Shown here piece after piece: positions 15,082-61,671 of a DNA stretch of 64,000 nucleotides (its first letter is position 1; each line of letters opens with the position of its first letter). The stretch lies in contig CANJLL010000001.1 in the NCBI GenBank assembly GCA_947475545.1, forward strand, positions 686,277-750,276, given 5' to 3'. The notes beneath the pieces were generated by a model. That model did not search any database. It worked only from the letters and a program-made list of their open reading frames with translations, and was not told the DNA's origin. The DNA is from Chloroflexota bacterium (lineage in GTDB: Bacteria; Chloroflexota; Limnocylindria; Limnocylindrales; CSP1-4). The position numbers and the translations under genes are program-made.

Positions 15082-15184
15082 CCGGACCGTTCAGTAGAGG
15101 ATCGCGGCGGTCCGCCTGACCGACCAGTGCCGGGCGGCCCCATCGGGCTGCGGCCGCCCCAGTCGCCCGGCAGTACCCGAGTTG

Positions 15185-16320: not shown

Positions 16321-16321
16321 G

Positions 16322-16819: not shown

Positions 16820-16834
16820 CCTTCCTCCTGATCC

Positions 16835-38979: not shown

Positions 38980-39000
38980 GTCAGCGCCCGACCCGCCGGC

Positions 39001-40437: not shown

Positions 40438-40523
40438 GGCAGCCTCCGGGGGACGACTGACTGATGCTGGTGGTGGCTCGGAGCCGCGAGCCTACGCCCG
40501 GGCTCCGGGACCGTCAAACGGCC

Positions 40524-42545: not shown

Positions 42546-43184
42546 TCAGAAGAGGAGCCGGCCCTGGCGCTGGACCAGCTCAAGCCAGGCTCGCTCGCGC
42601 CCGATCGTGGTTCCAGGGCCGTGGCCCGGGAAGACGGCCAGCGAGTCTTCGAAGCCGGCCAGCCGGCCCAGGGATTCGACCATCTGCTCGGCATTGCCGC
42701 CCGGCAGGTCCACGCGGCCCCAACCGCCGGCGAAGAGCGTGTCGCCGCTGAACAGGAGGCCCTCGTCGGCCGCCCACAGCGAGACGGAGCCCTCGGTGTG
42801 ACCGGGGGTATGCAGCGTCCGGAGCCGGATCTCGCCGAAGCGGATCTCGCCCCCTTCGGCCAGATCAACCGCAGCGACGCTGGGCGGGATGGCAAATGGC
42901 GCGACCCTGGAGCTGGGGGCCTCCAGGCGGTAGCGATCCAGCGGGTGGATGGCGATGGGCGCGCCGGTGTGCTCCGCAACGGCCGCGTTGTCGCCCATGT
43001 GATCCCAGTGGCCATGGGTGTTGATGATCAGCTTCAGCGTCCACTGGCGGGCCGCCAGCTCGTCGCGGATCCAGGCGAGGGACGGAATCGCCGTGTCGAT
43101 GGCGATGGCCTCGCGCGAGCGCGGGTCAGCGAGGATGTGGACGTTGGTGGAGAGGGGGCCGACCACCCGGGAGATCCGTTCCAT
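42546..43184 (-). CDS. MBL-fold hydrolase (glyoxalase II-like)
   Basis: 212-aa internal start MERISRV, with THGHWDHMG and TPGHTEGS motifs. Confidence 0.85.
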   Translation of the reverse strand: MERISRVVGPLSTNVHILADPRSREAIAIDTAIPSLAWIRDELAARQWTLKLIINTHGHWDHMGDNAAVAEHTGAPIAIHPLDRYRLEAPSSRVAPFAIPPSVAAVDLAEGGEIRFGEIRLRTLHTPGHTEGSVSLWAADEGLLFSGDTLFAGGWGRVDLPGGNAEQMVESLGRLAGFEDSLAVFPGHGPGTTIGRERAWLELVQRQGRLLF

Positions 43185-43593
43185 CGGCCGATTGTGGCAG
43201 GTCGGCCGCGGGCGCTGGCCGAACGTCCAATCGGGTCGGCTCGCAGCCGGGAGGGTCGGGAGGCGTGCGGTCGCCGGACGCACCGCCGGGCATGGCCGCG
43301 CCGTGGTCGCGCCGCCACGGCCCATGGGGCCCGTGGTCCTCCACCATGGCGCCGGCCGTCCGGCAAGACCCTCCCGATTGTCACCCGGGGTGGCATCCGG
43401 TGGGCCATCCCAGCCGACTGTCGGCGCCGCTGGCAATCGGGATGACCCTCGGTCGATGGTGAGCACGATGGCCCGAGGGCCGGTAGCTCCGGGTCCGTCA
43501 TTGGTCATGGTGGCTGACGTCCGGGAGGATCCGCCTGCGTCCGGCCGGGTGCCACCCCCGTCCTGGGCCGCGTCCGGCACAGCGCTGCTGGGC

Positions 43594-43665
43594 GGGGCTG
43601 AGGCGCCGCTTGGGGCCGGGGCTGAGGCGCCGCTGCGGACTGGGGCTGCGGCGCCGCCCATCGCC
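43594..43665. repeat. Three copies of a 24-bp tandem repeat (ggggctgaggcgccgcttggggcc), degenerating 3'
   Basis: Read directly within the 520-bp spacer 43185-43704. Confidence 0.85.
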
Positions 43666-43704
43666 TGGGGCCGCGCCCCAACTTGCTCGCCCGCCCCGTG
43701 GTGG

Positions 43705-44367
43705 TCAGCGCGACGCAGGCTGGCGCCCCACGCGCCGCACCGCCGCCACCGACACCAGCAGCTCCCAGGCCGACGGCACGGCCACGTACACCCGCTCCAG
43801 GAGGCCCAGCCAGGGCAGGAGCGGCCCGTACAGCGTCACGGGGACCAGCACCATGCCCACGACGACCAGCCAGCCCGTCGCGCGCGTGGGCCCGGCCCAC
43901 CCCTGCCACCGGGGATCGCGGCCCATGACCCGCGCTACCACCAGGAGCGTCACCGGCAGGCTGATCGAGTAGGCGGCGAAATTGACCAAGTGGAGCACGC
44001 CAATCAGCGAGGTCCCACGAGCCCCCGCGTCCGTGGGAAACACGGCAAAGAGAATCGTCACCACGCCCTGGAATGCCAGGAGCCGCCAGACCAGCCGCCG
44101 GTCGCGCGCGGTGGCCCCGACCACCCGCCCCATCCCAGCCGCCCAGGCCAGCCCCAGCCCGCCGCTGATCAGGAAGGCCAGCGCCTGGAGCCACCCGTTG
44201 GGGGCGTTGGCGAGCAGGCTGATGGATTGCCGGATGGGGTCGTACCCGGGCCACGTGAGCATCACGGGCACCGTCAGGCCCCACGCCAGGACCGGCGCGA
44301 GGACGCCGGCGAGGAGCAGCAGGAGAAGGGGCCGTTTGGCCCCCACGAATCCGGCGTTTTCGGCCAT
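43705..44367 (-). CDS. DUF998-like polytopic membrane protein
   Basis: 220 aa with about 6 TM helices and the motif YDPIRQSIS. Confidence 0.7.
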   Translation of the reverse strand: MAENAGFVGAKRPLLLLLLAGVLAPVLAWGLTVPVMLTWPGYDPIRQSISLLANAPNGWLQALAFLISGGLGLAWAAGMGRVVGATARDRRLVWRLLAFQGVVTILFAVFPTDAGARGTSLIGVLHLVNFAAYSISLPVTLLVVARVMGRDPRWQGWAGPTRATGWLVVVGMVLVPVTLYGPLLPWLGLLERVYVAVPSAWELLVSVAAVRRVGRQPASR

Positions 44368-44421
44368 GCGCTGATCGTCTCACGAAGGCCCAACCGGCCG
44401 CCGACCGAACGGCCCGCGTGA

Positions 44422-44450
44422 TTGGGGCCGGACGGCCCTATGTGTATACA
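44422..44450 (+). promoter_or_regulatory. Candidate promoter/operator of the nfn-kor operon (TTGGGG-17 nt-TATACA, containing the palindrome TGTATACA)
   Basis: This is the only AT-rich patch in the divergent spacer. The palindrome is at 44443-44450, about 27 nt upstream of ATG 44477. Confidence 0.3.
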
Positions 44451-44476
44451 AGCGTCGACGGCGACCCTTCTCCTCG

Positions 44477-45376
44477 ATGGTTGCTGAAGTCGTCCCCAAC
44501 GCCGTCCCATACGAGATCGTCACGAGAACCGATTTCTCGGACGTCACGTACCTGCTGGAAGTCCTCGAGCCCGACATGGCGAAGGCCGCCCATCCAGGCC
44601 AGTTCGTCATGGTCATGTCCCACGCCGAAGGTGAGCGGATCCCGCTGACCATCGCGGACTTCGACCGGGAGAGGGGCACCATCACCCTGGTGGTGCAGGC
44701 CATCGGCAAGACCACCCGCGAGATGCAGCGCGACCTGATCCAGGGCGCGCACCTTTACGCGATGGTGGGCCCCATGGGCATCCCCTCCCACATCGAGGGC
44801 GTGAAGAAGGTCATCTGCGTGGGCGGCGGCCTGGGCGTGGCCCCGGTCTACCCGCAGGCCCGCGCGTTCAAGGAGGCCGGCGCCTACGTGATCGGCGTCA
44901 TCGGCTTCCGGAACAAGGACCTTGTCTTCTGGGAGGACAAGTTCGAGTCCGTCTGCGACGAGTTCATCATCTGCTCGGACGACGGCTCCGTGGGCATCAA
45001 GGGCCTCGTCACCGAGGGCATCAAGATCGCCCTCGAGAAGCACGACGACGTGGACGAGGTCATCGCCATCGGCCCGCCGATCATGATGCGGGCCTGCTCG
45101 CAGTTCACGCAGCCGTACGGCGTCCACACCGTCGTCAGCCTCAACCCGATCATGGTCGATGGGACCGGGATGTGCGGCGGCTGCCGGGTCAAGGTGGACG
45201 GCCGGACCAGGTTCGCGTGCGTGGACGGCCCCGACTTCGACGCCCACAAGGTGGACTTCGACGACCTCATGGCTCGCCTCAAGCGGTTCCGCGAGCAGGA
45301 GAAGCAGGTTCTGGATCGCTGGGAGCAGGGTTGCCGGATCCCGGAAGCCCCCACCATGTCGACGCCCGGCGCATAG
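44477..45376 (+). CDS. NfnA/SudB-like FAD/NAD(P)-binding [2Fe-2S] oxidoreductase subunit
   Basis: 299 aa with a ferredoxin-NADP reductase-like fold (ERIPLTIAD, GGGLGVAP) and a C-terminal Cys cluster CGGCRV...C. Confidence 0.88.
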   Translation: MVAEVVPNAVPYEIVTRTDFSDVTYLLEVLEPDMAKAAHPGQFVMVMSHAEGERIPLTIADFDRERGTITLVVQAIGKTTREMQRDLIQGAHLYAMVGPMGIPSHIEGVKKVICVGGGLGVAPVYPQARAFKEAGAYVIGVIGFRNKDLVFWEDKFESVCDEFIICSDDGSVGIKGLVTEGIKIALEKHDDVDEVIAIGPPIMMRACSQFTQPYGVHTVVSLNPIMVDGTGMCGGCRVKVDGRTRFACVDGPDFDAHKVDFDDLMARLKRFREQEKQVLDRWEQGCRIPEAPTMSTPGA

Positions 45377-45385
45377 GGTCCCGCG

Positions 45386-46885
45386 ATGGCGAAGAAGAAG
45401 ACGATCCGGACCATCCCCCAGGACCGGACGCCGATGCAGGAGCAGGTGCCGGAGATCCGCGCCCGCAACTTCGCGGAGGTGTCCCTCGGCTACGAGCTGG
45501 CCGCGGCCGTTCGCGAGTCCGAGCGTTGCCTCATGTGCCCCGACGAGCCGTGCATCCGCGGCTGCCCGGTCGGCATCAACATCCCCGGCTTCATCGCCAA
45601 GATCGGCGAGAAGGACTTCCACGGCGCGTACGACGTCCTGACGGACACCACGCTCCTCCCGGCCATCTGCGGCCGCGTCTGCCCGCAGGAGACGCAATGC
45701 GAGGGCGTGTGCACCGTCGGCGAGAGCCTGGAGTCGGTGGCCATCGGCCGCCTCGAGCGCTTCGTGGGCGACATGGCGATCGCCGAGGGCTGGTCCGCCG
45801 TCCCGTACATCGAGCCCAACGAGCTCCGGGTCGGCATCATCGGCTCCGGGCCGTCGGGCATGGCGTGCGCCGCAGACATGGCCAAGGCCGGCTGCAAGGT
45901 GACCGTCTTCGAGGCCTTCCAGCAGCCCGGCGGCGTGCTCCGCTACGGGATCCCGGAGTTCCGCCTCCCCAACGAGGTGGTGGACGCCGAGATCGCCAAG
46001 GTCGCCCGACTGGGCGTCACGTTCCGGATGAACGCCCTGGTCGGCCGCCTGTTCACGATCGAGCAGATGCTCACCGACATGGGCTTCGACGCCGTCTTCG
46101 TGGGCACGGGCGCCGGCACCCCCGTCTTCATGGACATCGCCGGCGAGTCGCTCAGCGGCGTGGTCTCGGCCAACGAGCTGCTGACCCGCATCAACCTGAT
46201 GCAGGCGCGCGACTTCCCCGCCCACGACACGCCCCTGGGGCTCGGCAAGAAGGTCGCGGTCATCGGTGCCGGCAACACGGCGATGGACGCGCTGCGCGTC
46301 TCGCTCCGCCTGGGCGCCGACAAGGTGATGTGCGTCTACCGGCGCGGCCACGAGGAGGCCCCTGCCCGCGCGGAGGAGCTCCACCACGCCGAGCAGGAGG
46401 GCATCGAGTTCCACTGGCTGACCAACCCGCTCGCCATCCTCGATGACGGCAACGGCAACGTCCGGGGCATGCTCTGCCAGCGGATGGAGCTGGGCGAGCC
46501 CGACAAGTCGGGGCGGCGCCGGCCGGTCCCCGTGGAGGGCAGCGACTTCGAGCTTGAGTGCGACACGGTCGTCTACGCGATCGGCACCAACGCCAACCCG
46601 ATCCTGGGCCAGACCTCCAGCCTGGCGCTCACGGACCGCGGCTACATCGTGGCCAACGACTCCCTCGCGACCTCGATCGACGGCGTCTTCGCCGGCGGCG
46701 ACATCGTGACCGGGGCGGCCACCGTCATCGAGGCCATGGGTGCCGGCCGCACGGCCGCCGCTGCCATGAAGCGCTACCTGGGGCTCCGCGACAGCACGCT
46801 GCCGTATGCCCCCGCCGAGCGCGCGTCCAGCCTGTTCGGGCTCGCGCCCGAGCAGCGCAACTTCGTCCGGGTGCAGGTGGCATGA
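45386..46885 (+). CDS. NfnB / GltD-like NADPH-dependent oxidoreductase subunit (glutamate synthase small-chain family)
   Basis: 499 aa. It has N-terminal 2x[4Fe-4S] Cys motifs (CLMCPDEPCIRGCP, CGRVCPQETQCEGVC) and two Rossmann motifs (GIIGSGPSG, VIGAGNTAMD). Confidence 0.9.
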   Translation: MAKKKTIRTIPQDRTPMQEQVPEIRARNFAEVSLGYELAAAVRESERCLMCPDEPCIRGCPVGINIPGFIAKIGEKDFHGAYDVLTDTTLLPAICGRVCPQETQCEGVCTVGESLESVAIGRLERFVGDMAIAEGWSAVPYIEPNELRVGIIGSGPSGMACAADMAKAGCKVTVFEAFQQPGGVLRYGIPEFRLPNEVVDAEIAKVARLGVTFRMNALVGRLFTIEQMLTDMGFDAVFVGTGAGTPVFMDIAGESLSGVVSANELLTRINLMQARDFPAHDTPLGLGKKVAVIGAGNTAMDALRVSLRLGADKVMCVYRRGHEEAPARAEELHHAEQEGIEFHWLTNPLAILDDGNGNVRGMLCQRMELGEPDKSGRRRPVPVEGSDFELECDTVVYAIGTNANPILGQTSSLALTDRGYIVANDSLATSIDGVFAGGDIVTGAATVIEAMGAGRTAAAAMKRYLGLRDSTLPYAPAERASSLFGLAPEQRNFVRVQVA

Positions 46886-48816
46886 GCGAGCTGTTGGTCA
46901 ACGGGACGGCCGGGGCGGCCGTCGACGGCGGGCTGGACCTGGAGCCCCTGACGGGCGACCGGGCGAGCAAGCGCGTCACCATCGTCGACGAGCAGATCAT
47001 CGAGATCGTCAGCGACTCGGGCGAGGGCGCCCAGCGCTGCGGCCAGGCCCTGGCGGCCCTCGCGGCGCGGTCCGGCCGCGGCATCTGGACCGTGGAGATC
47101 ATCCCGGCCGAGATCCAGCCCCCGGCCCGCAGCATCGCGGGCGGCTCGGGCAATCGGGTCCGGATGGGCTCTCACCCGATCAGCAATGGCGGCGACGAGG
47201 CCGACCTGGCCGTGGCCTTCAACGAGCAGGTCCTGCTGGGAAGGGAGCGCGAGGGCGAGCTGAAGCCGGGCTGCCGGATTCTCCTCGAGAGCATGTGGCG
47301 GACCGACCGGAACCCGATCACCGCCCGGGAGTACCTGCTGACCTACGACGAGCTGGTGGCCAAGGGCTACAACGTCATCGAGGTCCCGATGGAGGCCGAG
47401 TGCCGCAAGCTGGTCTCCGACCCGCGGCGCGGCAAGAACATGTTCGTCCTCGGGATCCTGTGCAACGTCTACACGCTGGACCTGGCGCTGGCCCGCGAGC
47501 AGGTCGCCCTGACGTTCGGCAAGAAGGATCAGAAGGTCATCGACACGAACGTCCTCCTGCTGGAGGCCGGCTGGTCGTGGGCGGAGGCCAACCTGGACTT
47601 CCAGTTCGAGATCCCCACCATGCGCCTCACCGAACCGCAGGTGGTCTTCAACGGCAACATCGCGATCGCCCTGGGCGTGCTGGCCTCCGGGATGGAGATC
47701 TGCGCGATGTACCCCATCACGCCAGCCACCTCGGCCAGCCATTACCTGTCCGAGATCTTCGAGAAGACGGGTGGCATCGTCCACCAGGCCGAGGACGAGA
47801 TCGCGGCGGCCACGTTCGCCATCGGCGCCTCGTACGCCGGCAAGTGCGCGGTCACCATCACCTCGGGGCCCGGCTACTCGCTCAAGCAGGAGGCCCTGGG
47901 CCTCGCGGTCATGGCCGAGATCCCGCTGGTCGTGGTGAACGTCCAGCGCGGCGGTCCCAGCACCGGCCAGCCCACCAAGCCCGAGCAGGGCGACCTGATG
48001 ACCTCGATCTTCGGCTCACACGGCGACGCGCCCAAGGTCGTGATGGCGGCCAGCACCATCGAGGACTGCTTCTACTCCATCATCACCGCACGGAAGATCG
48101 CCGAGACCTTCAACTGCGTGGTGGTCGTGCTCACCGACGGCAGCCTGGCGACCGCCCAGCAGCCGTTCCCGCGGCCCAGCTTCAGCGAGGACTGGCTGGC
48201 CCCGCCCATCGACCAGAGCCCGGTGCCGGTCGGCGCCAAGGCGTACGACTGGGACGGCACCACCGGCCTGATGAAGCGGTTCATCCCCGGCCAGCCCGGC
48301 GGCATGCACACGCTCACCGGCCTGGCCCACGACCGGGCCAGCAAGGTGGCCTACGACCCGGCCAGCAACGAGGCCGGCCTGCGCAACCGCAGCCTGAAGC
48401 TGGCCGCGCTCCAGAAGACCCTCCGCTGCCCCGACGTCCACGGCGACCCGGACGGCGATCTGCTGGTCGTCGGCTGGGGCTCCACCCGGGGCGCCATCGA
48501 GGAGGCGGTCGACGGCCTGCGCGCCGACGGCAAGCGGATCTCGTCGCTCCATCTCCGCTTCCTGAACCCCATGCCGTCGGGCATCGGCGACATCATGAAG
48601 CGGTTCAAGAAGGTCATGACCGTGGAGTCGAACTGGTCCGACTCCCTGGACGAGGATCTGATCGACGAGGAGAACCGGCGCTACAGCGCGCTGGCCATGC
48701 TCCTCCGCGCCAAGTACCTCGTGGATGTCGACTGCTGGACGGAGGTCCGCAGCCGGCCCATCAAGCCAGGCGTCGTCCGTGCGGCCCTGTCCGCTGCCCT
48801 GGAGAAGGTGTCGTGA
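46882..48816 (+). CDS. korA: 2-oxoacid:ferredoxin oxidoreductase subunit alpha
   Basis: 644-aa internal start MSELLVNG with an ATGA overlap onto the upstream stop. KorA-like sequence (YPITPATS, VVNVQRGGPSTGQPTK). Confidence 0.92.
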   Translation: MSELLVNGTAGAAVDGGLDLEPLTGDRASKRVTIVDEQIIEIVSDSGEGAQRCGQALAALAARSGRGIWTVEIIPAEIQPPARSIAGGSGNRVRMGSHPISNGGDEADLAVAFNEQVLLGREREGELKPGCRILLESMWRTDRNPITAREYLLTYDELVAKGYNVIEVPMEAECRKLVSDPRRGKNMFVLGILCNVYTLDLALAREQVALTFGKKDQKVIDTNVLLLEAGWSWAEANLDFQFEIPTMRLTEPQVVFNGNIAIALGVLASGMEICAMYPITPATSASHYLSEIFEKTGGIVHQAEDEIAAATFAIGASYAGKCAVTITSGPGYSLKQEALGLAVMAEIPLVVVNVQRGGPSTGQPTKPEQGDLMTSIFGSHGDAPKVVMAASTIEDCFYSIITARKIAETFNCVVVVLTDGSLATAQQPFPRPSFSEDWLAPPIDQSPVPVGAKAYDWDGTTGLMKRFIPGQPGGMHTLTGLAHDRASKVAYDPASNEAGLRNRSLKLAALQKTLRCPDVHGDPDGDLLVVGWGSTRGAIEEAVDGLRADGKRISSLHLRFLNPMPSGIGDIMKRFKKVMTVESNWSDSLDEDLIDEENRRYSALAMLLRAKYLVDVDCWTEVRSRPIKPGVVRAALSAALEKVS

Positions 48817-49817
48817 CCATCTCGTTCGATCCCACGCCATCCTTCGCCCAGTGCCTCCTGGGCCCCACCGATGAGCACCACGAGCTGGACGAATACCAGA
48901 CGGGCATCCCGCGCTGGTGCAACGGCTGCGGCGACAACGGCATCCTGGCCGCCATGCAGCGGCTCTGCCGCGACTACGACCTCTCGCCGGAGCGGACGGT
49001 CTTCGTGTCCGGCATCGGCTGCTCCAGCCGGTTGCCCCACTACATGAAGACGTACGGCTTCCATGGGCTGCACGGCCGGGCGCTGCCCATCGCCGAGGGC
49101 ATCAAGATGTCCCGGCCGGACCTCCCGGTCTTCGTGTCCACCGGCGACGGCGACTGCCTGTCGATTGGCGCGGGTCACTGGATGCACGCCATTCGCTACA
49201 ACATGGACATGACGGTCCTGCTCCACGACAACGCGATCTACGGGTTGACCAAGAAGCAGGCCTCCCCCACCTCGCCGATGGGAACCAAGAGCAACACGAC
49301 GCCCAAGGGGTCGTACCTGGAGGCGTTCAACCCGCTCCAGGCGGCGCTGGGCATCGAGGGCGTGTCGTTCATCGCCCAGATGGTGGACTGGGTCCCCGAG
49401 ATGCTCTATGACATCCTCCAGGCGGCCTACCGCCACCGCGGCTTCAGCTTCGTCCGGATCATCCAGCGCTGTCCCGAGTTCATGCCCGGCTTCTTCGACC
49501 CGTACATGAACGATCCGGAGCGCGTCCAGATCCTGACCCATCCCAACGCGCTGACGCCCAGCGCCAACATGAACAAGGTCTACCGCAACCAGCTGGTCCA
49601 CGACCCGTCGAACCTGGACCGGGCGCGCGAGATCGCGAGCAGCTCCGATCCCATCCCGGTGGGGATCCTGTACCAGAACCCGGACGTCCCACGCCTGGAG
49701 GTCATCCGGGGCGCGGGCCGGGTCCGGACGGCCGAGACCGTGCAGAAGGGCCTCGACAGCGAGCTCGACAAGTTCACGATCTGGCCCGACGCCGAGCCGG
49801 CGCTGGTGGAGGCCTGA
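48813..49817 (+). CDS. korB: 2-oxoacid:ferredoxin oxidoreductase subunit beta (TPP-binding)
   Basis: 334 aa with a GTG start overlapping the korA stop (GTGA). It has WCNGCGDNG and the TPP motif GDGDCLSIGAGH. Confidence 0.92.
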   Translation: MTISFDPTPSFAQCLLGPTDEHHELDEYQTGIPRWCNGCGDNGILAAMQRLCRDYDLSPERTVFVSGIGCSSRLPHYMKTYGFHGLHGRALPIAEGIKMSRPDLPVFVSTGDGDCLSIGAGHWMHAIRYNMDMTVLLHDNAIYGLTKKQASPTSPMGTKSNTTPKGSYLEAFNPLQAALGIEGVSFIAQMVDWVPEMLYDILQAAYRHRGFSFVRIIQRCPEFMPGFFDPYMNDPERVQILTHPNALTPSANMNKVYRNQLVHDPSNLDRAREIASSSDPIPVGILYQNPDVPRLEVIRGAGRVRTAETVQKGLDSELDKFTIWPDAEPALVEA

Positions 49818-49820
49818 GCC

Positions 49821-52013
49821 GTGACGCTCGACGAGGAGCGCTTCTTCTACCGAACCGGCCGGCGCACCAGCACCGCCCTTCGCCCGGTGGCGGAGGCGGC
49901 CCTGCGGCCGGCGCTCTTTGCCCAGCTGAGCGACCTGACGGCGCTCCGCTACGACTTCCCGGTCGTGCTGGCCAGCCGTCACGGCGACCCCAGCTGGGTC
50001 GAGCCGCTGTCATCGATCCTGGACGTCACGCTGGCCGAGGTCGCCCCGTCCGGGCCGGCCGGCGAGCGGTTCCGCCGCACCGTACTCCGGATGGAGCGCG
50101 AGATCCGGCTCCTGATGCGCGATGACTCGAGCCGTCGGGCAGCCGCGGGCGAGGCCCTGGCGGGCGCCCCACTGCCCACGCTCGATGACCTCTGGAGCCG
50201 CGCGCACGAGCGCCTGACCATCGCCGGCGGCGAGCCGGCCGCGGTCGAGCTGGCGCGCGCCAAGCAGGCGCTCCAGACGCGCAACATGTTCGACGGACAC
50301 GTCGCCGACTGCGACGCCGGCCTCCCGGCCCACGTCGTGGCCCATGCCTGGTCGTGGGTCGAGGCCCGCAAGGCCGACGCGATGCGCCAGAAGATCTCCA
50401 CGCTCCTGATCACGCTCAAGAACCTGGTTACCGCCGACTTCATGCGGTCCGAGGCGGGACGCGGCGCAAGCACGCTGTCCGCCGGGGTCGGCGGCGCCGA
50501 CCGCGCCATGTTCGACTTCGGCGTGATGGCAAAGCTGCTGGCCGCCCCGTCGGGCGCCAGCGCCCTGCCGCCGGCGCGGCGCGCCCGGATTGACGAGACC
50601 ATCCAGGTCCTGCGTGGGCAGCACTTCTTCGGCCCCGGTTCCTACCCATTCCGGTTCGACCGGGTGGACCTGGCCCTGGCGGCCTGGCGCGAGCGACAGC
50701 CCGAGCTGGCGCGACTGGTCCGCGCGATCGCGATCGCGGAGCTGGAGGTGGGCGGCCGGTACAGCGAGGCCCGCCACGACGAGTACTTTGCCGGCTTTGA
50801 CGGCACGTCCGTCGGCGACGAGGAGAAGGTCCTCTTCCCGGACTACCTCGTGACGCTGGGTGCGGGCTCCACCGATCCGGCGGGCCGGGCGCAGGTGCTG
50901 GAGGCGCTGGCCGGTGATGCACCGGTCAAGATCCTGCTGGAGACCTCCGATCCGTTCGGGCTCGGCGGGCAGCTGGCGACCACCGCCATGGGCCTGGGCG
51001 GCGTCTACGTGCTGCAGGCCCCCAGCGCCCACCTGTATGTCGTCCGAGACGAGATCCGGGCCGCCTTCGAGTTCGGCGGGCCCAGCCTGATCTCCGTCTT
51101 CAACGGCGCGTTCGGCGGCGGGCCGGCCCTCTCGCCGTACCTGGTCTCGTCGGTGGCGCTGGAGTCGCGGGTCTTTCCCGCGTTTGTCTACGACCCGTCT
51201 GCGGGCACCGACTGGGCCCAGCGCTTCGACCTCCTCGAGAACCCGCAGCCGGACGTGACCTGGCCGGTCCACCAGCTCTCCTATGCCGATGCCAAGCTGG
51301 GGCGCGTCGACGAGGCGGTCGCTGTCACGCCCCTTGACCTGGCGCTGTGCGATCCACGGCGTGCCCAGCACTTCGCGCGGACGCCGATCGCGCATTGGAC
51401 GGGCCTCGTCCCGGCCGACGCGTGGCTGGATGAGCAGAAGGCGGACGGCGCCGCGCCGTTCGTGCCCGCGGTGGACGCAAACGCCCGGCTGATGCGCCTG
51501 GCCGTGGACGACACGCTGGTGCGCGAGGCACACCGCGTCGCGGAGGCCTGGAACCGGCTGCGCCAGCTCGACGACATGAAGCACGAGAAGATCCGGTTCG
51601 TCGAGGTGCCGCCGGCGTCGGCGCCGTCGGCGCCGTCGATGACCGCGGGTGCCGAGGCTTCGCCTGGAGCGGCCCCCGCCGCCGCTGCGGCGGCTGCGCC
51701 GGTTGCGGCCGCGCCCGCCGTCGAGGGAGTTGCCGCCACGCCCGCTGCCGAGCCCGAGCGGAATCCGGACGAGCCGTACATCGAGACCTGGCGGTGCACC
51801 ACCTGCAACGAGTGCACTGGCGTGAATGCCCGGATGTTCGCCTACAACGAGAACCGGCAGGCCTACATCAAGGACATCACGGCGGGCACCTACCGGGACC
51901 TGGTGAACGCCGCGGAGAGCTGCCAGGTGGCGATCATCCACCCCGGGAAGCCGCGCGATCCCAGGGAAGCCGGGCTCGACGAGCTGATGGAGCGGGCCCA
52001 GTCGTTCCTGTAG
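49821..52013 (+). CDS. 730-aa uncharacterised protein with a C-terminal single-cluster ferredoxin-like domain
   Basis: It starts 3 nt after the korB stop. The C-terminus has CxxCxxC...C (CTTCNEC ... SCQVAIIHPG). An Ala/Pro-rich linker covers residues about 596-650. The middle region is reminiscent of the C-terminal part of PFOR domain VI. Confidence 0.8.
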   Translation: MTLDEERFFYRTGRRTSTALRPVAEAALRPALFAQLSDLTALRYDFPVVLASRHGDPSWVEPLSSILDVTLAEVAPSGPAGERFRRTVLRMEREIRLLMRDDSSRRAAAGEALAGAPLPTLDDLWSRAHERLTIAGGEPAAVELARAKQALQTRNMFDGHVADCDAGLPAHVVAHAWSWVEARKADAMRQKISTLLITLKNLVTADFMRSEAGRGASTLSAGVGGADRAMFDFGVMAKLLAAPSGASALPPARRARIDETIQVLRGQHFFGPGSYPFRFDRVDLALAAWRERQPELARLVRAIAIAELEVGGRYSEARHDEYFAGFDGTSVGDEEKVLFPDYLVTLGAGSTDPAGRAQVLEALAGDAPVKILLETSDPFGLGGQLATTAMGLGGVYVLQAPSAHLYVVRDEIRAAFEFGGPSLISVFNGAFGGGPALSPYLVSSVALESRVFPAFVYDPSAGTDWAQRFDLLENPQPDVTWPVHQLSYADAKLGRVDEAVAVTPLDLALCDPRRAQHFARTPIAHWTGLVPADAWLDEQKADGAAPFVPAVDANARLMRLAVDDTLVREAHRVAEAWNRLRQLDDMKHEKIRFVEVPPASAPSAPSMTAGAEASPGAAPAAAAAAAPVAAAPAVEGVAATPAAEPERNPDEPYIETWRCTTCNECTGVNARMFAYNENRQAYIKDITAGTYRDLVNAAESCQVAIIHPGKPRDPREAGLDELMERAQSFL

Positions 52014-52087
52014 CCGCGGCCAGCGCCAACGCGCCGCCCGCCACCACCCACGCCTTTTCCGAAGGCCGCGGCCCCGGGGGCTTCTTC

Positions 52088-54442
52088 CTATCCGGCGGGC
52101 GTCGCCGATGCCCTGGCCCCGCGGGCCGCGGCCCCGCCGGGCTCGGCCCCGCGGGGCACAGCGTCGCGCTCGCGGACCAGGCGCAGGATCCGCTCCGGCG
52201 TCATCGGCAGCTCCATGACTCGCGCGCCGATCGCCCGGCTGACCGCGTTCGCGACCGCCGGCGCGATGGCGGGGAGCGGCGTCTCCCCGATCCCATGGAT
52301 ATCGATGGTGCCAGGCGTCTCCAGCACGGTCTGGCCGAACCGCTGGGGAAGGTCCAGGAAGGAGGGGATCATGTAGTCGGACAGGTTGGGGTTGGTGAGC
52401 GTCCCCGCCTCGTCCCAGCGGAGCTCCTCGAACAGGGCCTGACCCACCCCGAACAGCGATGCGCCGAAGACCTGGAGCTCGCAGCCCGTGGGGTTGACCA
52501 TGCGCCCCACGTACAGGCCAACGTGGAGCTGGAGGATCTGGACCCGGCCGGTCTCCTCGTCGACCTCCACCTCGGCCGCGCAGACCGCCGGGTGCCACTG
52601 GGGCGAGGCGATGCCCTGCCCGGTCTGCGGGTCCAGCCCGATCGAGGGGCGGTACCAGCCCTCGCCCGACAGGCTGCCCACCTTGGCGGCGGCCACGACC
52701 GAAGCGATGGAGCGCGAGGTCGCCGGCGCCCCCGCGACGACGATCCGGCCATCCTCCACCGAGAGGTCGGCCGGCGCGGCCTCCAGCTGGTCTGCGGCCA
52801 GGGCCAGGAGCTTCGCCCGGACATCGCCCACGGCGGCGCGGATGGCCCGGCCCATGAAGCTGGTGGCACGACTGGCCGCGGTCATCGCGTCGAACGGCGT
52901 GACCTCGGTGTCGGGCGTCGAGACCCGGACATCCGCCAGCGGCACCCCCAGCTCATGCGCCGCGATCTGCGCCAGCACCGTCAGCGCGCCCTGGCCCATC
53001 TCGACCGAGCTGGTCAGCACGTTGAGGGTCCCGTCGGCATTGAGCTTCACGGCGGCGGTCGCCGAGAAGGCGCCCATCCCCTTGATGATCGCGGCGAGGC
53101 CCTTCGCCCGGACCCGCGAGCCCGCGCGCTCCGGCTCGATGGGCCACGCCCAGCCGATCCGCGCCGCCGCGTCGCGGAGCAGCTCCGGGTAGTGCGGGTC
53201 CTCCAGGAGCGTCTCGCCCGTGGAGAACGCGTCGCCGGGGAGGAGGATGTTGTGGAGCCGCAGCGCCAGCGGGTCCATCCCCAGGGCGTCCGCCACGCGG
53301 TCCATCTGCGTCTCGTGCGCCCAGGCCATCTGCGGCATCCCGAACCCCCGGAAGGCGCAGGCCGGCGTCACGTTGGTGTACACCCCGGCCGAATCCACCC
53401 GGATGTCGGGCACGCGGTACGGACCCATGCTGGCGTAGCCACGGGTGATCTTCTCGGGGGTGTCGGTGGCGTACGCGCCGCCGTTGTAGAGGCAGTGGGC
53501 CTCGTGGGCCACCAGCGTGCCGTCGAGGCGGACGCCGGTCCGCAGCCGCACGACCGACGGGTGCTTCATCCCCGTCACGAACTCCTCGGCCCGACTCAGC
53601 GAGAGGCGCACCGGCCGGCGCGCCTTCCGGGCGAGGAGCGTGACCAGCGGCTCGATGCTGGGGTCGATCTTGGAGCCGTAGCCGCCGCCCAGCGTGGGAA
53701 CGATCACCCGAACGCGGGCGACCGGCAGCCCGATCACGCCTGCCAGGGTCTCCGCGAGCGTGGACGGCGCCTGGGAGGAGGACCAGACCGTCAGCCCGCC
53801 CGCACGGAACCACGCGACGCAGACGTGGGTCTCGAACGCCACGTGGGCGACGGCCGGCGTCCGGTACTCGCCCTCCACGATGAGGTCGGCGCCGGCGAAG
53901 CCGGCCTCCGCATCCCCCCGGCGGAGCCGGAATCGGTGGATGGCGTTGGTGCCGGTCAGGCCGGGCTGGTGCGCCACCAGGTCCCGGCGGTTGAAGGCCA
54001 GGCGTCGCGGTCCCGGGTGGAGGACGGGCGCGCCGGGCGCGAGCGCCGCGTCCACGTCCAGGACGGCGGGGAGTGGCTCGTAGTCCACCTCGATCATTGC
54101 CAGGGCGGCCTCCGCCTCCGCCTCGGTCTCGGCCGCCACCGCGACCACCGGCTCCCCGGCGTAGCGAGCCACGTCCCGCGCCAGCGGCGGCTGGTCGCGC
54201 AGGAACAGGCCGAACGCCGGGTCGAGCGCCGGGTCGTCGAGGTCGGCGCCAGTCAGTACCGCCATGACTCCCGCGGCCGCCGCGGCCCGGGACGCGTCCA
54301 CGCCCAAGATCCGTGCGTGGGCGTGCGGCGACCGAAGCACCCGAGCGTGCAGCATCCCGGGCAGAACCAGGTTCTGCACGAATTCGATCGTGCCGGTGAC
54401 GCGCTCACGGGCATCCACCATGGGCACCCGGAAGCCGAACAT
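52088..54442 (-). CDS. Molybdopterin-binding large subunit of a xanthine dehydrogenase / aldehyde oxidase-family hydroxylase
   Basis: ATG start MFGFRVPMVDARERVTG; the ORF track allows TTG at 54538. Active-site loop CAFRGFGMPQ. The C-terminal domains are typical. Confidence 0.9.
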   Translation of the reverse strand: MFGFRVPMVDARERVTGTIEFVQNLVLPGMLHARVLRSPHAHARILGVDASRAAAAAGVMAVLTGADLDDPALDPAFGLFLRDQPPLARDVARYAGEPVVAVAAETEAEAEAALAMIEVDYEPLPAVLDVDAALAPGAPVLHPGPRRLAFNRRDLVAHQPGLTGTNAIHRFRLRRGDAEAGFAGADLIVEGEYRTPAVAHVAFETHVCVAWFRAGGLTVWSSSQAPSTLAETLAGVIGLPVARVRVIVPTLGGGYGSKIDPSIEPLVTLLARKARRPVRLSLSRAEEFVTGMKHPSVVRLRTGVRLDGTLVAHEAHCLYNGGAYATDTPEKITRGYASMGPYRVPDIRVDSAGVYTNVTPACAFRGFGMPQMAWAHETQMDRVADALGMDPLALRLHNILLPGDAFSTGETLLEDPHYPELLRDAAARIGWAWPIEPERAGSRVRAKGLAAIIKGMGAFSATAAVKLNADGTLNVLTSSVEMGQGALTVLAQIAAHELGVPLADVRVSTPDTEVTPFDAMTAASRATSFMGRAIRAAVGDVRAKLLALAADQLEAAPADLSVEDGRIVVAGAPATSRSIASVVAAAKVGSLSGEGWYRPSIGLDPQTGQGIASPQWHPAVCAAEVEVDEETGRVQILQLHVGLYVGRMVNPTGCELQVFGASLFGVGQALFEELRWDEAGTLTNPNLSDYMIPSFLDLPQRFGQTVLETPGTIDIHGIGETPLPAIAPAVANAVSRAIGARVMELPMTPERILRLVRERDAVPRGAEPGGAAARGARASATPAG

Positions 54443-54527
54443 GGATGTCGTGACGGGCGCTGCCGGTCCCGACGGCGCAGCCGACCCAGCCCGGTTCGCT
54501 GGCCGGGCCAGCTTTGCTGGCCCGGCG

Positions 54528-54968
54528 TCAGGCCTCAAGCTTGGCGCGGATGCAGTCGAAGGACTGGCCGATCAGCTTGTTGGCGGTGCCCTCGATCAGG
54601 CGTGCGCCCACGGTCGCCAGGGTGCCCGAGATCTGCACCGAGGCCGACCAGTCCATCACGGTCGGGCCCTCCGGCGGCCCCGACAGGAGCATCTGGCCCG
54701 ACCCGTCAACCGCGCTTCCCGGCGCCTGGCCGCGGGCCTTGATCACCGCCTTGTCCGGAGCAATCTGCTCGGCCATCTCCAGGTCCACCGCGAACTTCGA
54801 TGTGATGAAGCCCACGCCGACCTTGGCCCGCGCCCGGAAGTGGGTGGCGTCGATCACCTCGATCGACTCCACGCCCGGCCCGCACGAGCCCACCTGGTTG
54901 GGGTCCGTGACAAAGGCCCAGACGGCGGCGCGCGGCGCGCGGATCACGACGTTGCCCGAGAACTCCAT
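54528..54968 (-). CDS. CoxG-like SRPBCC-family protein
   Basis: 146 aa with an N-terminus typical of CoxG (MEFSGNVVIRAPRAAVWAFVTDP). Confidence 0.8.
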   Translation of the reverse strand: MEFSGNVVIRAPRAAVWAFVTDPNQVGSCGPGVESIEVIDATHFRARAKVGVGFITSKFAVDLEMAEQIAPDKAVIKARGQAPGSAVDGSGQMLLSGPPEGPTVMDWSASVQISGTLATVGARLIEGTANKLIGQSFDCIRAKLEA

Positions 54969-55125
54969 GGTTCCTCCTGCGCGCCGGCGGCGTGGCCGGC
55001 CGGCGTGGCGTGGCCGGCCTGGTTGGCCGCCCGGCGGTCAATCGGCGGTCGGCATCGTTGATGATATCGACGCGGCGACGAAGCTCGACGGATCCCGCAC
55101 GAAGCATCGCGCTGGGCCGTGGGGA

Positions 55126-56538: not shown

Positions 56539-56584
56539 GGCGGATCTGGCCTGGTGATCCTGGACAGGGGGCCGGATCCAGCCG

Positions 56585-57724: not shown

Positions 57725-57757
57725 GGCAGATCCTCCAGGGCGGGAGCGTACAACCGA

Positions 57758-59140: not shown

Positions 59141-59161
59141 GGGACGTCGGCGCCCGGGGCG

Positions 59162-60055: not shown

Positions 60056-60111
60056 GTGGGGAAGATACCCGCTAGCGGAAAGTGGTGTCCGTCAATGACC
60101 TGGAGGCTGCC

Positions 60112-61544: not shown

Positions 61545-61671
61545 GCTCCTCCCGTCGGCCCCGCTCGAACGGGGACGGTGGAATACTACAAACACCATCA
61601 GCCCCGCGTGGCAACGCGCCGCGTGGGAACGCGGGGCGCCCCGACGCCATTCACCTGAGGAAACCGCCCCG

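Follow-up and report, generated by a model that had tools for sequence, protein, structure and literature searches.

Five co-directional genes at positions 44477-52013 (+ strand) of the window, the 64,000-nucleotide stretch of Chloroflexota DNA analysed here, are read as one operon for a self-contained electron relay linking a 2-oxoacid to pyridine nucleotides, with a swinging-arm ferredoxin as the carrier, at a probability of about 0.55. The genes encode NfnA, NfnB, KorA, KorB, and a fifth protein, a relic of pyruvate:ferredoxin oxidoreductase (PFOR) that corresponds to its C-terminal half and has lost the cofactors. The gene identities, the cofactor motifs, the dead-PFOR/linker/ferredoxin anatomy of the fifth protein, and the strict conservation of the gene set are directly supported by the observations described below.

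Gene organization and transcription

The reading frames are intact and are located at 44477-45376 (299 aa), 45386-46885 (499 aa), 46882-48816 (644 aa), 48813-49817 (334 aa), and 49821-52013 (730 aa), all on the plus strand, with a third-position GC of 0.90-0.97. Start/stop overlaps and short gaps had been claimed for the block, and direct reading of the sequence confirms them. The first junction consists of TAG, a 9-nt gap, and ATG; the second and third are ATGA (46882-46885) and GTGA (48813-48816) overlaps; and the fourth consists of TGA, a 3-nt gap, and GTG. Both flanking genes, a DUF998 gene upstream (43705-44367) and a CoxL-like gene downstream (52088-54538), lie on the minus strand. A signal scan of the block found no promoter-like sites and two terminator-like sites, both inside the fifth gene and equal in number to chance expectation. 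No promoter or terminator signal falls between nfnB and korA, in keeping with the coupled unit proposed earlier, and the locus has no match in Rfam. Since the stops and starts nearly abut or overlap, the flanks are on the opposite strand, and no internal signal exceeds chance, the five genes likely form a single transcription unit.

The divergent intergenic region 5' of the first gene (44368-44476) is the presumed promoter region, and it contains no match to the sigma-70 consensus. An AT-rich palindrome, TGTATACA, occurs there at 44443-44450. Among the related loci compared, only the near-identical locus L001 has the same palindrome, and no function is demonstrable from this sharing alone. Of 31 related loci, 11 have an upstream TTGA-N6-TCAA box of the CRP/FNR type where about 0.2 would be expected, which is consistent with an oxygen- or redox-regulated unit; the box is absent from 44368-44476 at the window's own locus.

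NfnAB and KorAB subunits

The sequence-only reading identified the genes correctly, and its term "NfnAB-like" can be strengthened, as the first two proteins are close orthologues of solved NfnAB. The first is assigned as NfnA, the PyrK-like small subunit of NADH-dependent ferredoxin:NADP+ oxidoreductase, predicted to carry FAD and a [2Fe-2S] cluster. It matches the small subunit of Pyrococcus furiosus NfnI (5jca_S, E 8.9e-96), Thermotoga maritima NfnA (4ylf_A, E 7.1e-74), and the domain models NF004862 (2.9e-115) and DHODB_Fe-S_bind, and in the alignments its cluster motif VDGTGMCGxCRV...FACVDGP, whose ligands are one Asp and three Cys, agrees exactly with that of solved NfnA. The second is assigned as the GltD-like large subunit NfnB, with two predicted [4Fe-4S] clusters, FAD, and an NADPH site. 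Its matches include T. maritima NfnB (4ylf_B, E 2.2e-165), the P. furiosus NfnI large subunit (5jca_L, E 5.2e-141), TIGR01316 (4.5e-174), Fer4_20, and Pyr_redox_2. The motifs CLxCPxxPCxxGCPV and CGRVCPQExQCExxC are retained in the alignments, along with a YRR segment in the second Rossmann fold that is taken here to be the NADPH site. Together these features mark the pair as genuine NfnA/NfnB orthologues.

The cassette NfnB has a specific C-terminal tail of residues 466-499 (46781-46882, + strand). The alignments to NfnB of T. maritima (468 aa) and P. furiosus (474 aa) end at residues 465-466, and beyond this point the motif FG[IL]x3E[RH]N[FY]xR[VI]R[VI]A is kept across 41 cassette loci. The tail is a candidate docking element, and its cassette-specific conservation is counted in favor of the relay.

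The pair could also be a simple, non-bifurcating NAD(P)H:ferredoxin oxidoreductase, in which case the whole system would merely couple 2-oxoacid oxidation to the reduction of NADP+ (or NAD+), like the three-subunit KGOR of Azoarcus evansii. A review of Nfn warns against reading the functions of Nfn homologues from sequence alone (PMC6405883), and in A. evansii KGOR, an enzyme cited in PMC10134865, an OFOR with a GltD/NfnB-family subunit is reported to reduce NADP+ directly. However, the two subunits of bifurcating NfnAB are both present in the cassette with every cofactor ligand kept, at roughly 55-65% identity judged by eye, and the KGOR flavoprotein belongs to an NsoC/KGOR clade and not to the NfnB clade (PMC10134865), which leaves a non-bifurcating pair improbable.

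The third protein has the Pfam domains POR (47-230), POR_N (266-424), and PFOR_II (526-594), matches TIGR03710 (1.4e-147), and contains a YPITP motif. Its best solved relative is the OGOR alpha subunit of Magnetococcus marinus (6n2n_A, E 1.5e-82), and it is assigned as KorA, an alpha subunit with an N-terminally fused gamma (CoA-side) domain. The fourth protein contains TPP_enzyme_C and PFO_beta_C domains and matches the OFOR beta subunit of Sulfolobus tokodaii (5b48_B, E 4.4e-53). The aligned WCxGCG, GIGCS, and CP cysteines and the GDGD...HDN TPP motif identify it as KorB, the beta subunit, with TPP and a single [4Fe-4S] cluster predicted. Domain searches of the five genes found no ferredoxin-like dicluster delta subunit. 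The two proteins are thus a 2-oxoacid:ferredoxin oxidoreductase of the two-subunit KorAB type, with a single [4Fe-4S] cluster. The cues to specificity diverge, with KorA nearest to OGOR and KorB nearest to the broad-specificity Sulfolobus OFOR; 2-oxoglutarate would be the most likely substrate.

The fifth protein

The fifth protein had been regarded as an orphan, but its conserved family is large, with 1352 or more clusters at 50% identity, and the protein consists of a dead PFOR half with a ferredoxin on a flexible arm. Its AF2 model has a pLDDT of 90.6 and a pTM of 0.81, with a disordered linker. Residues 1-270 (49821-50630, + strand) are mainly helical with a pLDDT mostly above 90, and profile positions 9-125 match residues 744-875 of Persicobacter PFOR (i-E 1.8e-6). 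The family has a gap opposite the PFOR stretch CTACGKCYTACP, with the CxxCxxCxxxCP cluster motif deleted, and C164 is the single conserved Cys of this region. Judging from these alignments, the region derives from two parts of PFOR, its domain III/IV boundary and its domain IV-V region.

Residues 271-583 (50631-51569, + strand) comprise a pseudo TPP-binding fold, similar to PFOR domain VI, and a C-terminal PFOR-type extension. Profile positions 271-736 match residues 1157-1633 of Persicobacter PFOR (i-E 1.4e-94), and Foldseek matches the body to Moorella PFOR (6cio/6cin, E about 3e-5), Desulfovibrio africanus PFOR, and OOR beta. No cofactor motifs were found in residues 271-583, and the GDG...YSNTGGQ motif, present in PFORs and KorB, is absent from the family. 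Domains I-III of PFOR are missing from the fifth protein, as are the TPP-binding motif and every PFOR cluster cysteine, and therefore the protein cannot be a PFOR enzyme.

Residues 584-649 (51570-51767, + strand) form a flexible Ala/Pro/Glu-rich linker, the proposed swinging arm, with a pLDDT below 50 at residues 607-642. In 120 homologues the linker has 38-78 residues (median 64) and contains 30% Ala, 12% Pro, and 10% Glu. The remaining residues 650-730 and the stop codon (51768-52013, + strand) encode a domain predicted to be a single-cluster [4Fe-4S] ferredoxin; a ferredoxin domain had been proposed earlier for the C-terminus. The only domain match of the whole protein, Fer4_13, scores 20.8 bits, under the cut-off of 24.5, whereas homologues score 28-35 bits. 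The ferredoxin call is nevertheless backed by four cysteines (C659, C662, C665, and C701) that are invariant in 120 sequences and by structural matches. The family profile matches D. africanus ferredoxin I (1dax, E 1.6e-4), and Foldseek superimposes the domain on 1fxr with a TM of 0.84 and an rmsd of 1.2.

The intact PFORs of Persicobacter and Gemmatirosa bear the same C-terminal extension, linker, and ferredoxin, which indicates that the tethered ferredoxin belongs with an OFOR; the Persicobacter PFOR gene is followed by rnfC and rnfD. The fifth protein could instead serve assembly, maturation, or regulation, with a ferredoxin-like domain that responds to redox state and carries no electrons for KorAB. 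Its body is a pseudoenzyme, pseudoenzymes often regulate active paralogues, and the Fer4_13 match in the window protein is weak. On the other hand, the four cluster cysteines are invariant, the fold matches that of an electron-carrier ferredoxin, and the genomic partners (Nfn, Rnf, or PFOR) are always ferredoxin-dependent enzymes, so such a role seems very improbable.

Conservation of the gene set and alternative partners

The gene order extends beyond this genome, contrary to the restriction that would have refuted the earlier proposal, and is kept without exception in all 86 related loci centered on the fifth gene or on KorB, wherever the contig reaches far enough upstream. Upstream of homologues of the fifth gene with 37-86% identity, the same order was found for KorB in 66/66, KorA in 40/40, NfnB in 34/34, and NfnA in 31/31, each gene being counted only where the contig reaches far enough upstream. 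KorB-centered look-ups found the same five genes in 3/3. The five-gene order occurs in bacteria of at least five phyla, and the taxa named with the cassette are Chloroflexi, Gemmatimonadaceae, Nanopelagicales, Xanthobacteraceae, and Acidobacteria. No conserved sixth gene was found among the related loci, whose flanks differ.

A deeper branch with longer variants of the fifth protein occurs in Rnf-type loci without NfnAB. In L089, L090, and L091, KorA, KorB, and a long variant are followed by RnfB-like, PFOR, and RnfC genes in place of NfnAB. The Rnf-type loci show that NfnAB is not an obligatory partner, and hence the earlier grouping of NfnAB, KorAB, and the fifth protein stands for the cassette loci but not as the sole pairing. 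The conserved core, as the gene neighborhoods indicate, is KorAB with the fifth protein, and NfnAB and Rnf are its two alternative partners. Both locus types indicate that this core has repeatedly been joined to a ferredoxin:NAD(P)+ oxidoreductase.

The fifth protein diverges fastest, with a median identity of 42% versus 68-72% for the other four, which fits a scaffold and equally fits a loosely constrained accessory. The genes may be co-regulated and functionally linked with no stable complex between their products, in which case the fifth protein would be a large diffusing ferredoxin, reduced by KorAB and reoxidized by NfnAB (or Rnf), and its dead-PFOR body would serve, for example, stability, regulation, or oxygen protection of the cluster. 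Conserved synteny proves functional linkage only and not contact, the fifth protein is much less conserved than its neighbors, and one family serving both Nfn and Rnf is easier to accommodate if diffusible. This account is nonetheless rather unlikely. The conserved 650-residue body and Ala/Pro arm are hard to explain by it, the same ferredoxin is covalently tethered in intact PFORs, and the KorB gene directly adjoins or overlaps the fifth gene throughout the loci examined, the one exception being L092, in which mobile genes lie between the two.

Proposed relay

In the preferred reading, the swinging-arm relay, KorAB would oxidatively decarboxylate the 2-oxoacid to acyl-CoA and CO2 and hand over two low-potential electrons singly, with the fifth protein's [4Fe-4S] ferredoxin domain as the acceptor. 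The domain would move on its disordered Ala/Pro/Glu-rich arm of 38-78 residues, and the catalytically dead PFOR-derived body probably anchors the arm beside KorAB. The reduced domain would then deliver the electrons to NfnAB, where, together with NADH, two NADP+ would be reduced. The net reaction would be 2-oxoacid + CoA + NADH + 2 NADP+ -> acyl-CoA + CO2 + NAD+ + 2 NADPH, and it would be reversible in principle. We infer this electron path from gene content; the physical association of the proteins, the substrate, and the direction are likewise inferred. Canonical NfnAB and KorAB work with free ferredoxin, so the tether is not chemically required, which counts against the relay. The rapid divergence of the fifth protein, the diverging cues to 2-oxoacid specificity, the lack of an FNR-type box at the window's locus, the sub-cut-off Fer4_13 score, and the Rnf-type loci without NfnAB are also counted against it.

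The same parts and relay could run in the reductive direction. NfnAB would bifurcate NADPH electrons between NAD+ and, uphill, the tethered ferredoxin, and KorAB, driven by this ferredoxin, would work as a synthase of 2-oxoglutarate (or pyruvate). The outcome would be a CO2-fixing reductive carboxylation of acyl-CoA that needs no soluble pool of reduced ferredoxin. NfnAB is reversible, and the cassette pair is closely orthologous to bifurcating enzymes. KorA has its best solved relative in Magnetococcus OGOR (6n2n), an enzyme from a reverse-TCA organism that was reportedly characterized in the CO2-fixing direction. Moreover, the FNR-type boxes suggest low-oxygen expression, and a bifurcation-driven OGOR with other modules was proposed for Ca. 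Endoriftia (PMC13147460). In contrast, the cassette has no further reverse-TCA genes linked to it, and its flanks vary. By our own estimate from standard potentials, the oxidative, confurcating way is strongly downhill, whereas the reverse needs high NADPH/NADP+ and low NADH/NAD+. No sequence feature distinguishes the two directions, and reductive operation is considered possible but doubtful.

Comparison with known systems

Solved NfnAB of T. maritima and P. furiosus share with the cassette the small-then-large gene order, the [2Fe-2S] ligands, the two [4Fe-4S] motifs, and the FAD and NADPH sites. Known NfnAB, however, stand alone, use free ferredoxin, and lack the extra conserved tail of about 34 residues, whereas the cassette pair is joined by translational coupling to KorAB and to a ferredoxin on a tether. 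KorAB-type enzymes such as M. marinus OGOR (6n2n) and S. tokodaii OFOR (5b46/5b48) likewise have a fused gamma-alpha subunit and a beta subunit with TPP and [4Fe-4S], and they too lack a ferredoxin-like delta subunit. The KorAB of Thauera aromatica and Mycobacterium tuberculosis also belong to the two-subunit class. Known members use a separately encoded soluble ferredoxin; here the next gene always encodes the dead-PFOR scaffold with its tethered ferredoxin.

The fifth protein matches the fold of the solved single-polypeptide PFORs of D. africanus and Moorella thermoacetica. The PFOR of Persicobacter psychrovividus pPP1 is homologous to residues 271-730 over its C-terminal ~480 residues, including extension, linker, and ferredoxin, and the PFOR of Gemmatirosa kalamazoonensis plasmid 1 is likewise long and ends in a tethered ferredoxin. 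We know of no description of such tethered-ferredoxin PFORs.

The three-subunit KGOR of A. evansii, a 2-oxoglutarate:NADP+ oxidoreductase, was reportedly described by Ebenau-Jehle et al. (2003, J Bacteriol 185:6119). It is not known to have an NfnA partner or a tethered-ferredoxin protein. Like the cassette, it reportedly combines a KorAB-type enzyme with a GltD/NfnB-family Fe-S flavoprotein, so that its oxidation of 2-oxoglutarate reduces NADP+ directly; the clade of the flavoprotein (PMC10134865) also sets it apart. NAD(P)-linked oxoacid oxidoreductases such as this one are precedents. The novelty suggested by the sequence-only reading thus holds for the gene combination, as no korAB-nfnAB unit, with or without the fifth gene, was found in the searchable literature, but not for the coupling of an OFOR to NAD(P) as such. 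In Ca. Endoriftia persephone, OGOR genes lie beside fumarate reductase AB and Flx-Hdr, and one complex was proposed (PMC13147460). OGOR is thus co-located with an electron-bifurcating module as in the cassette, but the module is Flx/Hdr instead of NfnAB and no tethered-ferredoxin scaffold is reported (PMC13147460).

By analogy, the fifth protein may be likened to the E2 component of 2-oxoacid dehydrogenases, in which a small carrier domain, a long Ala/Pro-rich linker, and a large scaffold stand between two catalytic partners. The lipoyl domains of E2 sit on such Ala/Pro-rich linkers. The two proteins are not homologous, and E2 carries acyl groups on lipoyl, whereas the fifth protein would carry electrons on an Fe-S ferredoxin.

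Organization of the five-gene unit

The cassette occupies positions 44477–52013 on the + strand of the window and comprises five intact frames of 299, 499, 644, 334, and 730 codons, encoding NfnA (g1), NfnB (g2), KorA (g3), KorB (g4), and a fifth protein (g5). The tight, co-directional packing described in the sequence-only reading, with two 4-nt overlaps and gaps of 3–9 nt, was borne out at every junction. The g2 start lies 9 nt downstream of the g1 stop TAG, g2 and g3 overlap by ATGA (46882–46885), g3 and g4 overlap by GTGA (48813–48816), and g5 starts with GTG 3 nt after the g4 stop TGA. The genome has a G+C content of ~71%, and spurious ORFs are therefore plentiful; the third-position G+C of 0.90–0.97 in the g1–g5 frames is the strong bias typical of real genes. 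The nearest neighbor on the g1 side is a DUF998 gene (43705–44367) and on the g5 side a CoxL-like molybdenum hydroxylase gene (52088–54538). Because both neighbors are encoded on the minus strand, the cassette is a self-contained + strand unit.

In a consensus scan, no promoter-like site was found within the cassette, and the two terminator-like sites, both inside g5, equal the number expected by chance. The scan also gave no promoter or terminator signal between nfnB and korA, where such a signal had been named as evidence against a common unit. No Rfam family, leader RNAs included, matched window positions 43000–53000 at E ≤ 0.1. No terminator was recognized 3′ of g5, the intergenic fold being no better than that of shuffled sequence (z = 0.25).

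In 11 of 31 related loci (L002, L004, L018, L019, L043, L065, L067, L071, L073, L074, and L081), the 250 nt preceding the cassette contain a perfect match to the CRP/FNR-type box TTGA-N6-TCAA, against an expectation of ~0.2 across the 31 loci at a background of 0.006 per 250 nt. The box is located 54–231 nt upstream of the NfnA-like gene in these 11 loci, and TTGC-N6-TCAA was found in several further loci. It is absent from the window's own upstream region, 44227–44476. These boxes suggest that many hosts control the cassette in response to oxygen or redox state. A palindrome, TGTATACA, is present at 44443–44450 upstream of g1 and is common only to the window and L001, a Chloroflexi MAG locus.

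Other genes in the window: A molybdenum hydroxylase cluster of the cox/xdh type, oriented convergently to the cassette, extends over 52088–62000 on the minus strand and includes the CoxL-like large subunit, CoxG, a MobA-like/methyltransferase fusion, XdhC, CoxE (VWA), an AAA ATPase, and a CoxM-like FAD subunit. The minus strand also encodes, at 36745–40491, a VWA-domain protein of 751 aa next to an AAA_5/sigma-54-interaction-like ATPase of 478 aa, and the two look like a MoxR/VWA chaperone pair.

Conservation of the gene set

Restriction of the five-gene synteny to this genome, on which the sequence-only reading would have foundered, did not hold when KorB and g5 were used as queries. The evidence was drawn from a metagenome scan with the g5-family alignment, which yielded 80 loci from at least 597 matches, and from exact-protein look-ups. 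Pooled over 86 loci, the genes upstream of g5 keep their order and strand on every contig that extends far enough, with KorB in 66 of 66, KorA in 40 of 40, NfnB in 34 of 34, and NfnA in 31 of 31. The KorB-centered look-ups (68–74% identity) returned the same five genes in all three cases, one of them from an Acidobacteria MAG, and two distant g5 homologues (43% and 39% identity) on megabase contigs also have the same five-gene order. L001, the sole locus found in a genome-contig scan with the single g5 sequence as query, has the five genes at 94–97% identity (g5, 86%) and shares the 4-nt overlaps and the 3-nt g4/g5 gap of the window.

The four enzymes have median identities of 68–72% to the window; the g5 median is only 42%. 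No conserved sixth gene was found on either side, the top downstream cluster being present in 6 of 60 loci. The source names include Chloroflexi, Gemmatimonadaceae, Nanopelagicales, Xanthobacteraceae, and Acidobacteria. Among annotated plasmids of cultured organisms searched by tblastn, the cassette was not found, and only distant tethered-ferredoxin PFORs were returned.

A few loci have additional features. In L088 (Acidobacteria MAG), two overlapping ORF calls of 339 and 301 aa (6064–7972) stand in place of a single KorA, owing either to a frameshift or an error of assembly or to true separation of the gamma and alpha portions. Just downstream of the cassette in L086, on the other strand (11063–16981), are two BcrAD_BadFG ATPase genes, HGD-D, enoyl-CoA hydratases, and dehydrogenases; in this one locus the cluster resembles a benzoyl-CoA reductase/2-hydroxyacyl-CoA dehydratase cluster, which would be a ferredoxin consumer. 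A second, distant GltD-like gene (32–33% identical to g2) is located downstream of the g5 homologue in L035 (3819–7385) and L083 (5271–6488), and a distant OFOR alpha-like gene (27% identity to g3) is present in L035 as well.

The NfnAB and KorAB subunits

NfnA and NfnB: g1 aligns end to end with the Pyrococcus furiosus NfnI small subunit (5jca_S, E 8.9e-96) and with Thermotoga maritima NfnA (4ylf_A, E 7.1e-74). Its [2Fe-2S] motif, VDGTGMCGxCRV...FACVDGP, is identical to that of solved NfnA, and g1 has the features that define this subunit, namely a PyrK-like, FAD-containing protein with a [2Fe-2S] cluster held by one Asp and three Cys. Among solved structures, g2 corresponds to T. maritima NfnB (4ylf_B, E 2.2e-165) and to the P. 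furiosus NfnI large subunit (E 5.2e-141), and its Pfam domains are Fer4_20 and Pyr_redox_2. Both [4Fe-4S] motifs, CLxCPxxPCxxGCPV and CGRVCPQExQCExxC, are retained with their Cys and Glu ligands, as is the YRR motif, whose arginines we take to be the NADPH site. The features of NfnB, a GltD-like protein with two [4Fe-4S] clusters, FAD, and an NADPH site, are all present in g2. The earlier description of the two subunits as NfnAB-like can therefore be strengthened: by their alignments and motifs, g1 and g2 are genuine NfnAB orthologues and more than GltD-like proteins, and their predicted activity is NADP+ reduction that depends on NADH and is coupled to ferredoxin, by electron bifurcation or confurcation. 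The function of Nfn homologues is not readable from sequence alone (PMC6405883).

A C-terminal tail of ~34 residues (residues 466–499; 46781–46882, + strand) is specific to the NfnB of the cassette. With the motif FG[IL]x3E[RH]N[FY]xR[VI]R[VI]A, it is conserved in all cassette loci and missing from solved NfnBs, and it may be a docking peptide. The tail and the TTGA-N6-TCAA boxes would fit a specialized, regulated complex.

KorA and KorB: g3 has the POR (gamma, fused), POR_N (PYR), and PFOR_II domains and passes TIGR03710, the 2-oxoacid:acceptor oxidoreductase alpha model, at 492.7 bits against a cut-off of 482.75. Among solved proteins, it is closest to the Magnetococcus marinus 2-oxoglutarate:ferredoxin oxidoreductase (6n2n_A, E 1.5e-82, 281 bits). 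g4 contains a TPP-binding domain together with the GDG...N motif and four Cys for the cluster, as seen in the alignment to its closest solved relative, the Sulfolobus tokodaii OFOR beta subunit (5b48_B, E 4.4e-53, 184 bits), and in a separate MAFFT alignment. Since a dicluster Fer4 (delta-like) domain was found by Pfam and NCBIfam in none of the five cassette products, g3 and g4 are assigned by their domain content to the two-subunit KorAB class with a single [4Fe-4S] cluster. The hints on substrate are split, with an OGOR closest to the alpha subunit and an OFOR of broad specificity closest to the beta subunit, and the NCBIfam models passed by KorAB are at subfamily level only. The phenylglyoxylate:NAD+ oxidoreductase PadEFGHI was ruled out, as the PadG model NF045764 scored 49.3 bits against a cut-off of 700.

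The fifth protein: a pseudo-PFOR with a tethered ferredoxin

Family: g5 was previously taken for an orphan, which is wrong. In a profile search of a representative library at 50% identity, its family comprises 1352 clusters at E ≤ 1e-30, a number that rises to 2901 at E ≤ 1e-3. There were 177 relatives among the scored candidates, and most of the 120 listed are full-length, with ~39–74% identity. These relatives are labelled merely "ferredoxin" or "hypothetical".

Body: The AlphaFold2 model of g5, built on 120 sequences, has a mean pLDDT of 90.6 and a pTM of 0.81, with residues 607–642 disordered. In Foldseek searches against the PDB, the body matches the PFORs of Moorella thermoacetica and Desulfovibrio africanus (E ~3e-5 to 8e-4, the best being 6cio/6cin at ~3e-5) and also oxalate oxidoreductase beta subunits. 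By hmmsearch, positions 9–125 of the g5 profile correspond to residues 744–875 of a Persicobacter PFOR (i-E 1.8e-6) and, collinearly, positions 271–736 to residues 1157–1633 (i-E 1.4e-94). g5 thereby has both the fold and the sequence homology of PFOR domains IV–VII. KorB and the PFORs of Persicobacter and Gemmatirosa have the TPP motif GGDG...VYSNTGGQ; every g5 homologue aligned with MAFFT has lost it by replacement or deletion, and no TPP_enzyme_C match was obtained for g5 in Pfam. Likewise, the cluster motif CxxCxxCxxxCP of PFORs is deleted from the g5 family in the profile alignment. g5 thus lacks two hallmarks of a PFOR enzyme, the TPP motif of domain VI and the cysteine motifs of the three [4Fe-4S] clusters (domains IV and VI). 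A second Fe-S site in the body was also considered and rejected; outside the ferredoxin domain only C164 is more than 90% conserved and no Cys is invariant, the other Cys columns being 62–96% conserved, two of them not Cys in the window protein.

Arm and ferredoxin: The linker between the body and the ferredoxin domain (residues 650–730) has 38–78 residues (median 64) in 120 sequences and consists of 30% Ala, 12% Pro, and 10% Glu. This Ala/Pro-rich composition recalls the swinging-arm linkers of 2-oxoacid dehydrogenase E2 subunits. The C-terminal ~60 residues match D. africanus ferredoxin I by Foldseek (1fxr, TM 0.84, rmsd 1.2 Å), and the family profile matches the same ferredoxin in sequence (1dax, E 1.6e-4). 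C659, C662, C665, and C701 are invariant in the 120 sequences. Fer4_13 scores 20.8 in g5, below the Pfam cut-off of 24.5, and above the cut-off in homologues. The C-terminus of g5 therefore has the CxxCxxC...C motif, the ~60-residue length, and the ferredoxin I fold of a single-cluster [4Fe-4S] ferredoxin. From the alignments and the model together, g5 is a widespread pseudo-PFOR bearing a ferredoxin on a proposed swinging arm.

Long form: P0396, a g5-family protein of 1436 aa, aligns collinearly with the Persicobacter PFOR throughout (747 residues at 24% identity and 531 at 27%), and no POR_N, POR, or TPP domain was matched in it. Because it is collinear with PFOR yet devoid of these matches, P0396 is a full-length pseudo-PFOR, and the 730-aa g5 of the window corresponds to the C-terminal half of this form.

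Rnf-type loci and tethered-ferredoxin PFORs

Long g5 variants (867–1460 aa, 27–31% identical) are located directly 3′ of KorA and KorB (64% and 57% identical). NfnAB is missing in three of the four long-variant loci, L089 (6106–20216), L090 (6111–15088), and L091 (6108–17657; GCA_020352495.1, CP070677.1), where the order is KorA, KorB, long g5, RnfB-like, a ~1530-aa PFOR, and RnfC as far as the contig reaches. In L092 (3985–12996), korA, korB, and the long g5 are split by inserted minus-strand genes for a PemK-type toxin with a small partner and for an HNH nuclease, an otherwise compact unit interrupted by mobile modules.

Distant g5 relatives were also found by tblastn in annotated plasmids as the C-terminal end of very long PFORs (~1630–1970 codons), in Persicobacter psychrovividus pPP1 (L084, 5533–12881) and Gemmatirosa kalamazoonensis plasmid 1 (L085, 795–10722). 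Both are apparently intact, with the full PFOR domain set followed by a g5-like extension, a linker, and a single-cluster ferredoxin. The Persicobacter PFOR has rnfC and rnfD directly downstream, and upstream of the Gemmatirosa PFOR are KorA (58% identical), KorB (50% identical), and an unknown protein of 366 aa.

Because Rnf replaces NfnAB in L089–L091, KorAB and g5 form the conserved core. The constant pair is KorAB and the tethered-ferredoxin protein, and the variable partner is Nfn or Rnf, which are interchangeable and both ferredoxin:NAD(P)+ oxidoreductases. The constancy of the pair, the change of partner, and the covalent tether in intact PFORs together make the strongest comparative argument that electrons leave, or enter, the oxoacid enzyme through the ferredoxin domain. 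The functional proposal of the sequence-only reading, a 2-oxoacid to NAD(P)H unit, thus survives its refutation tests at the genomic level, shorn of the orphan status of g5 and of NfnAB as a fixed partner.

Proposed mechanism and significance

In the proposed mechanism, the lone cluster of KorAB would pass single electrons to the arm-borne ferredoxin of g5, and the dead-PFOR body would anchor the arm. The ferredoxin would then dock on NfnB, NADH would enter at NfnA, and two NADP+ would be reduced. In a further-reaching reading, held at a probability of about 0.3, the five proteins would form one stable megacomplex, in which a dead-PFOR scaffold carries a swinging-arm ferredoxin that shuttles single electrons between the KorAB cluster and bifurcating NfnAB.

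The standard potential of the 2-oxoglutarate couple is ~−520 mV and that of both pyridine nucleotides is −320 mV. From standard potentials, the oxidative, confurcating direction is estimated to be downhill by ~39 kJ per 2-oxoacid, and the reverse direction to need high NADPH/NADP+ and low NADH/NAD+ ratios. For these reasons, oxidation is the favored direction and NADPH-driven reductive carboxylation a less probable one.

The disposal or supply of very low-potential OFOR electrons is a problem in organisms that have no obvious ferredoxin economy, including many aerobes with KorAB, and the cassette suggests a testable answer. If the megacomplex exists, soil and freshwater bacteria, most of them aerobic or facultative, would route such electrons without a soluble ferredoxin pool. 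Either 2-oxoglutarate oxidation would pay for NADH-to-NADPH transhydrogenation or NADPH bifurcation would drive reductive carboxylation, and in other lineages the same scaffold family would link KorAB to Rnf. On this view, tethered-ferredoxin pseudo-PFORs would constitute a general adaptor class for 2-oxoacid oxidoreductases that had gone unrecognized, and a new pseudoenzyme type, in which an enzyme relic is reused as the scaffold for an electron-carrying swinging arm. In addition, an unannotated, widespread adaptor family (at least 1352 clusters) gains a specific, testable role, and the contexts of bifurcating NfnAB would be extended. Engineering interest is possible, with 2-oxoacid oxidation or CO2-fixing carboxylation coupled to NAD(P)H without free ferredoxin.

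Comparison with known systems

In a non-exhaustive literature search, no paper naming korA, korB, nfnA, and nfnB together was found, and no Nfn or OGOR paper describing this neighborhood. The sequence-only reading likewise knew of no description of the combination as a unit. The three-subunit 2-oxoglutarate:NADP+ oxidoreductase (KGOR) of Azoarcus evansii, the biochemistry of which was reportedly worked out by Ebenau-Jehle et al. in 2003, is a precedent for NAD(P)-coupled 2-oxoacid oxidation. One study places the KGOR flavoprotein in an NsoC/KGOR clade of the GltD/NfnB superfamily, separate from NfnB (PMC10134865). On that placement, and as g2 is a close NfnB orthologue, membership of g2 in the KGOR clade is unlikely.

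The main review of Nfn distribution makes no mention of oxoacid oxidoreductase neighbors and flags the Nfn homologues of aerobes as unexplained (PMC6405883). AadN, a fused Nfn homologue of Rhodopseudomonas palustris, was ruled out as a matching system, as AadN and KorAB are alternatives there rather than partners (PMC9973337). A proposed cluster of OGOR, fumarate reductase, and Flx-Hdr in Ca. Endoriftia (PMC13147460) is a precedent for the general idea. Among these systems, the cassette is classed as a kind of NAD(P)-coupled 2-oxoacid oxidoreductase system.
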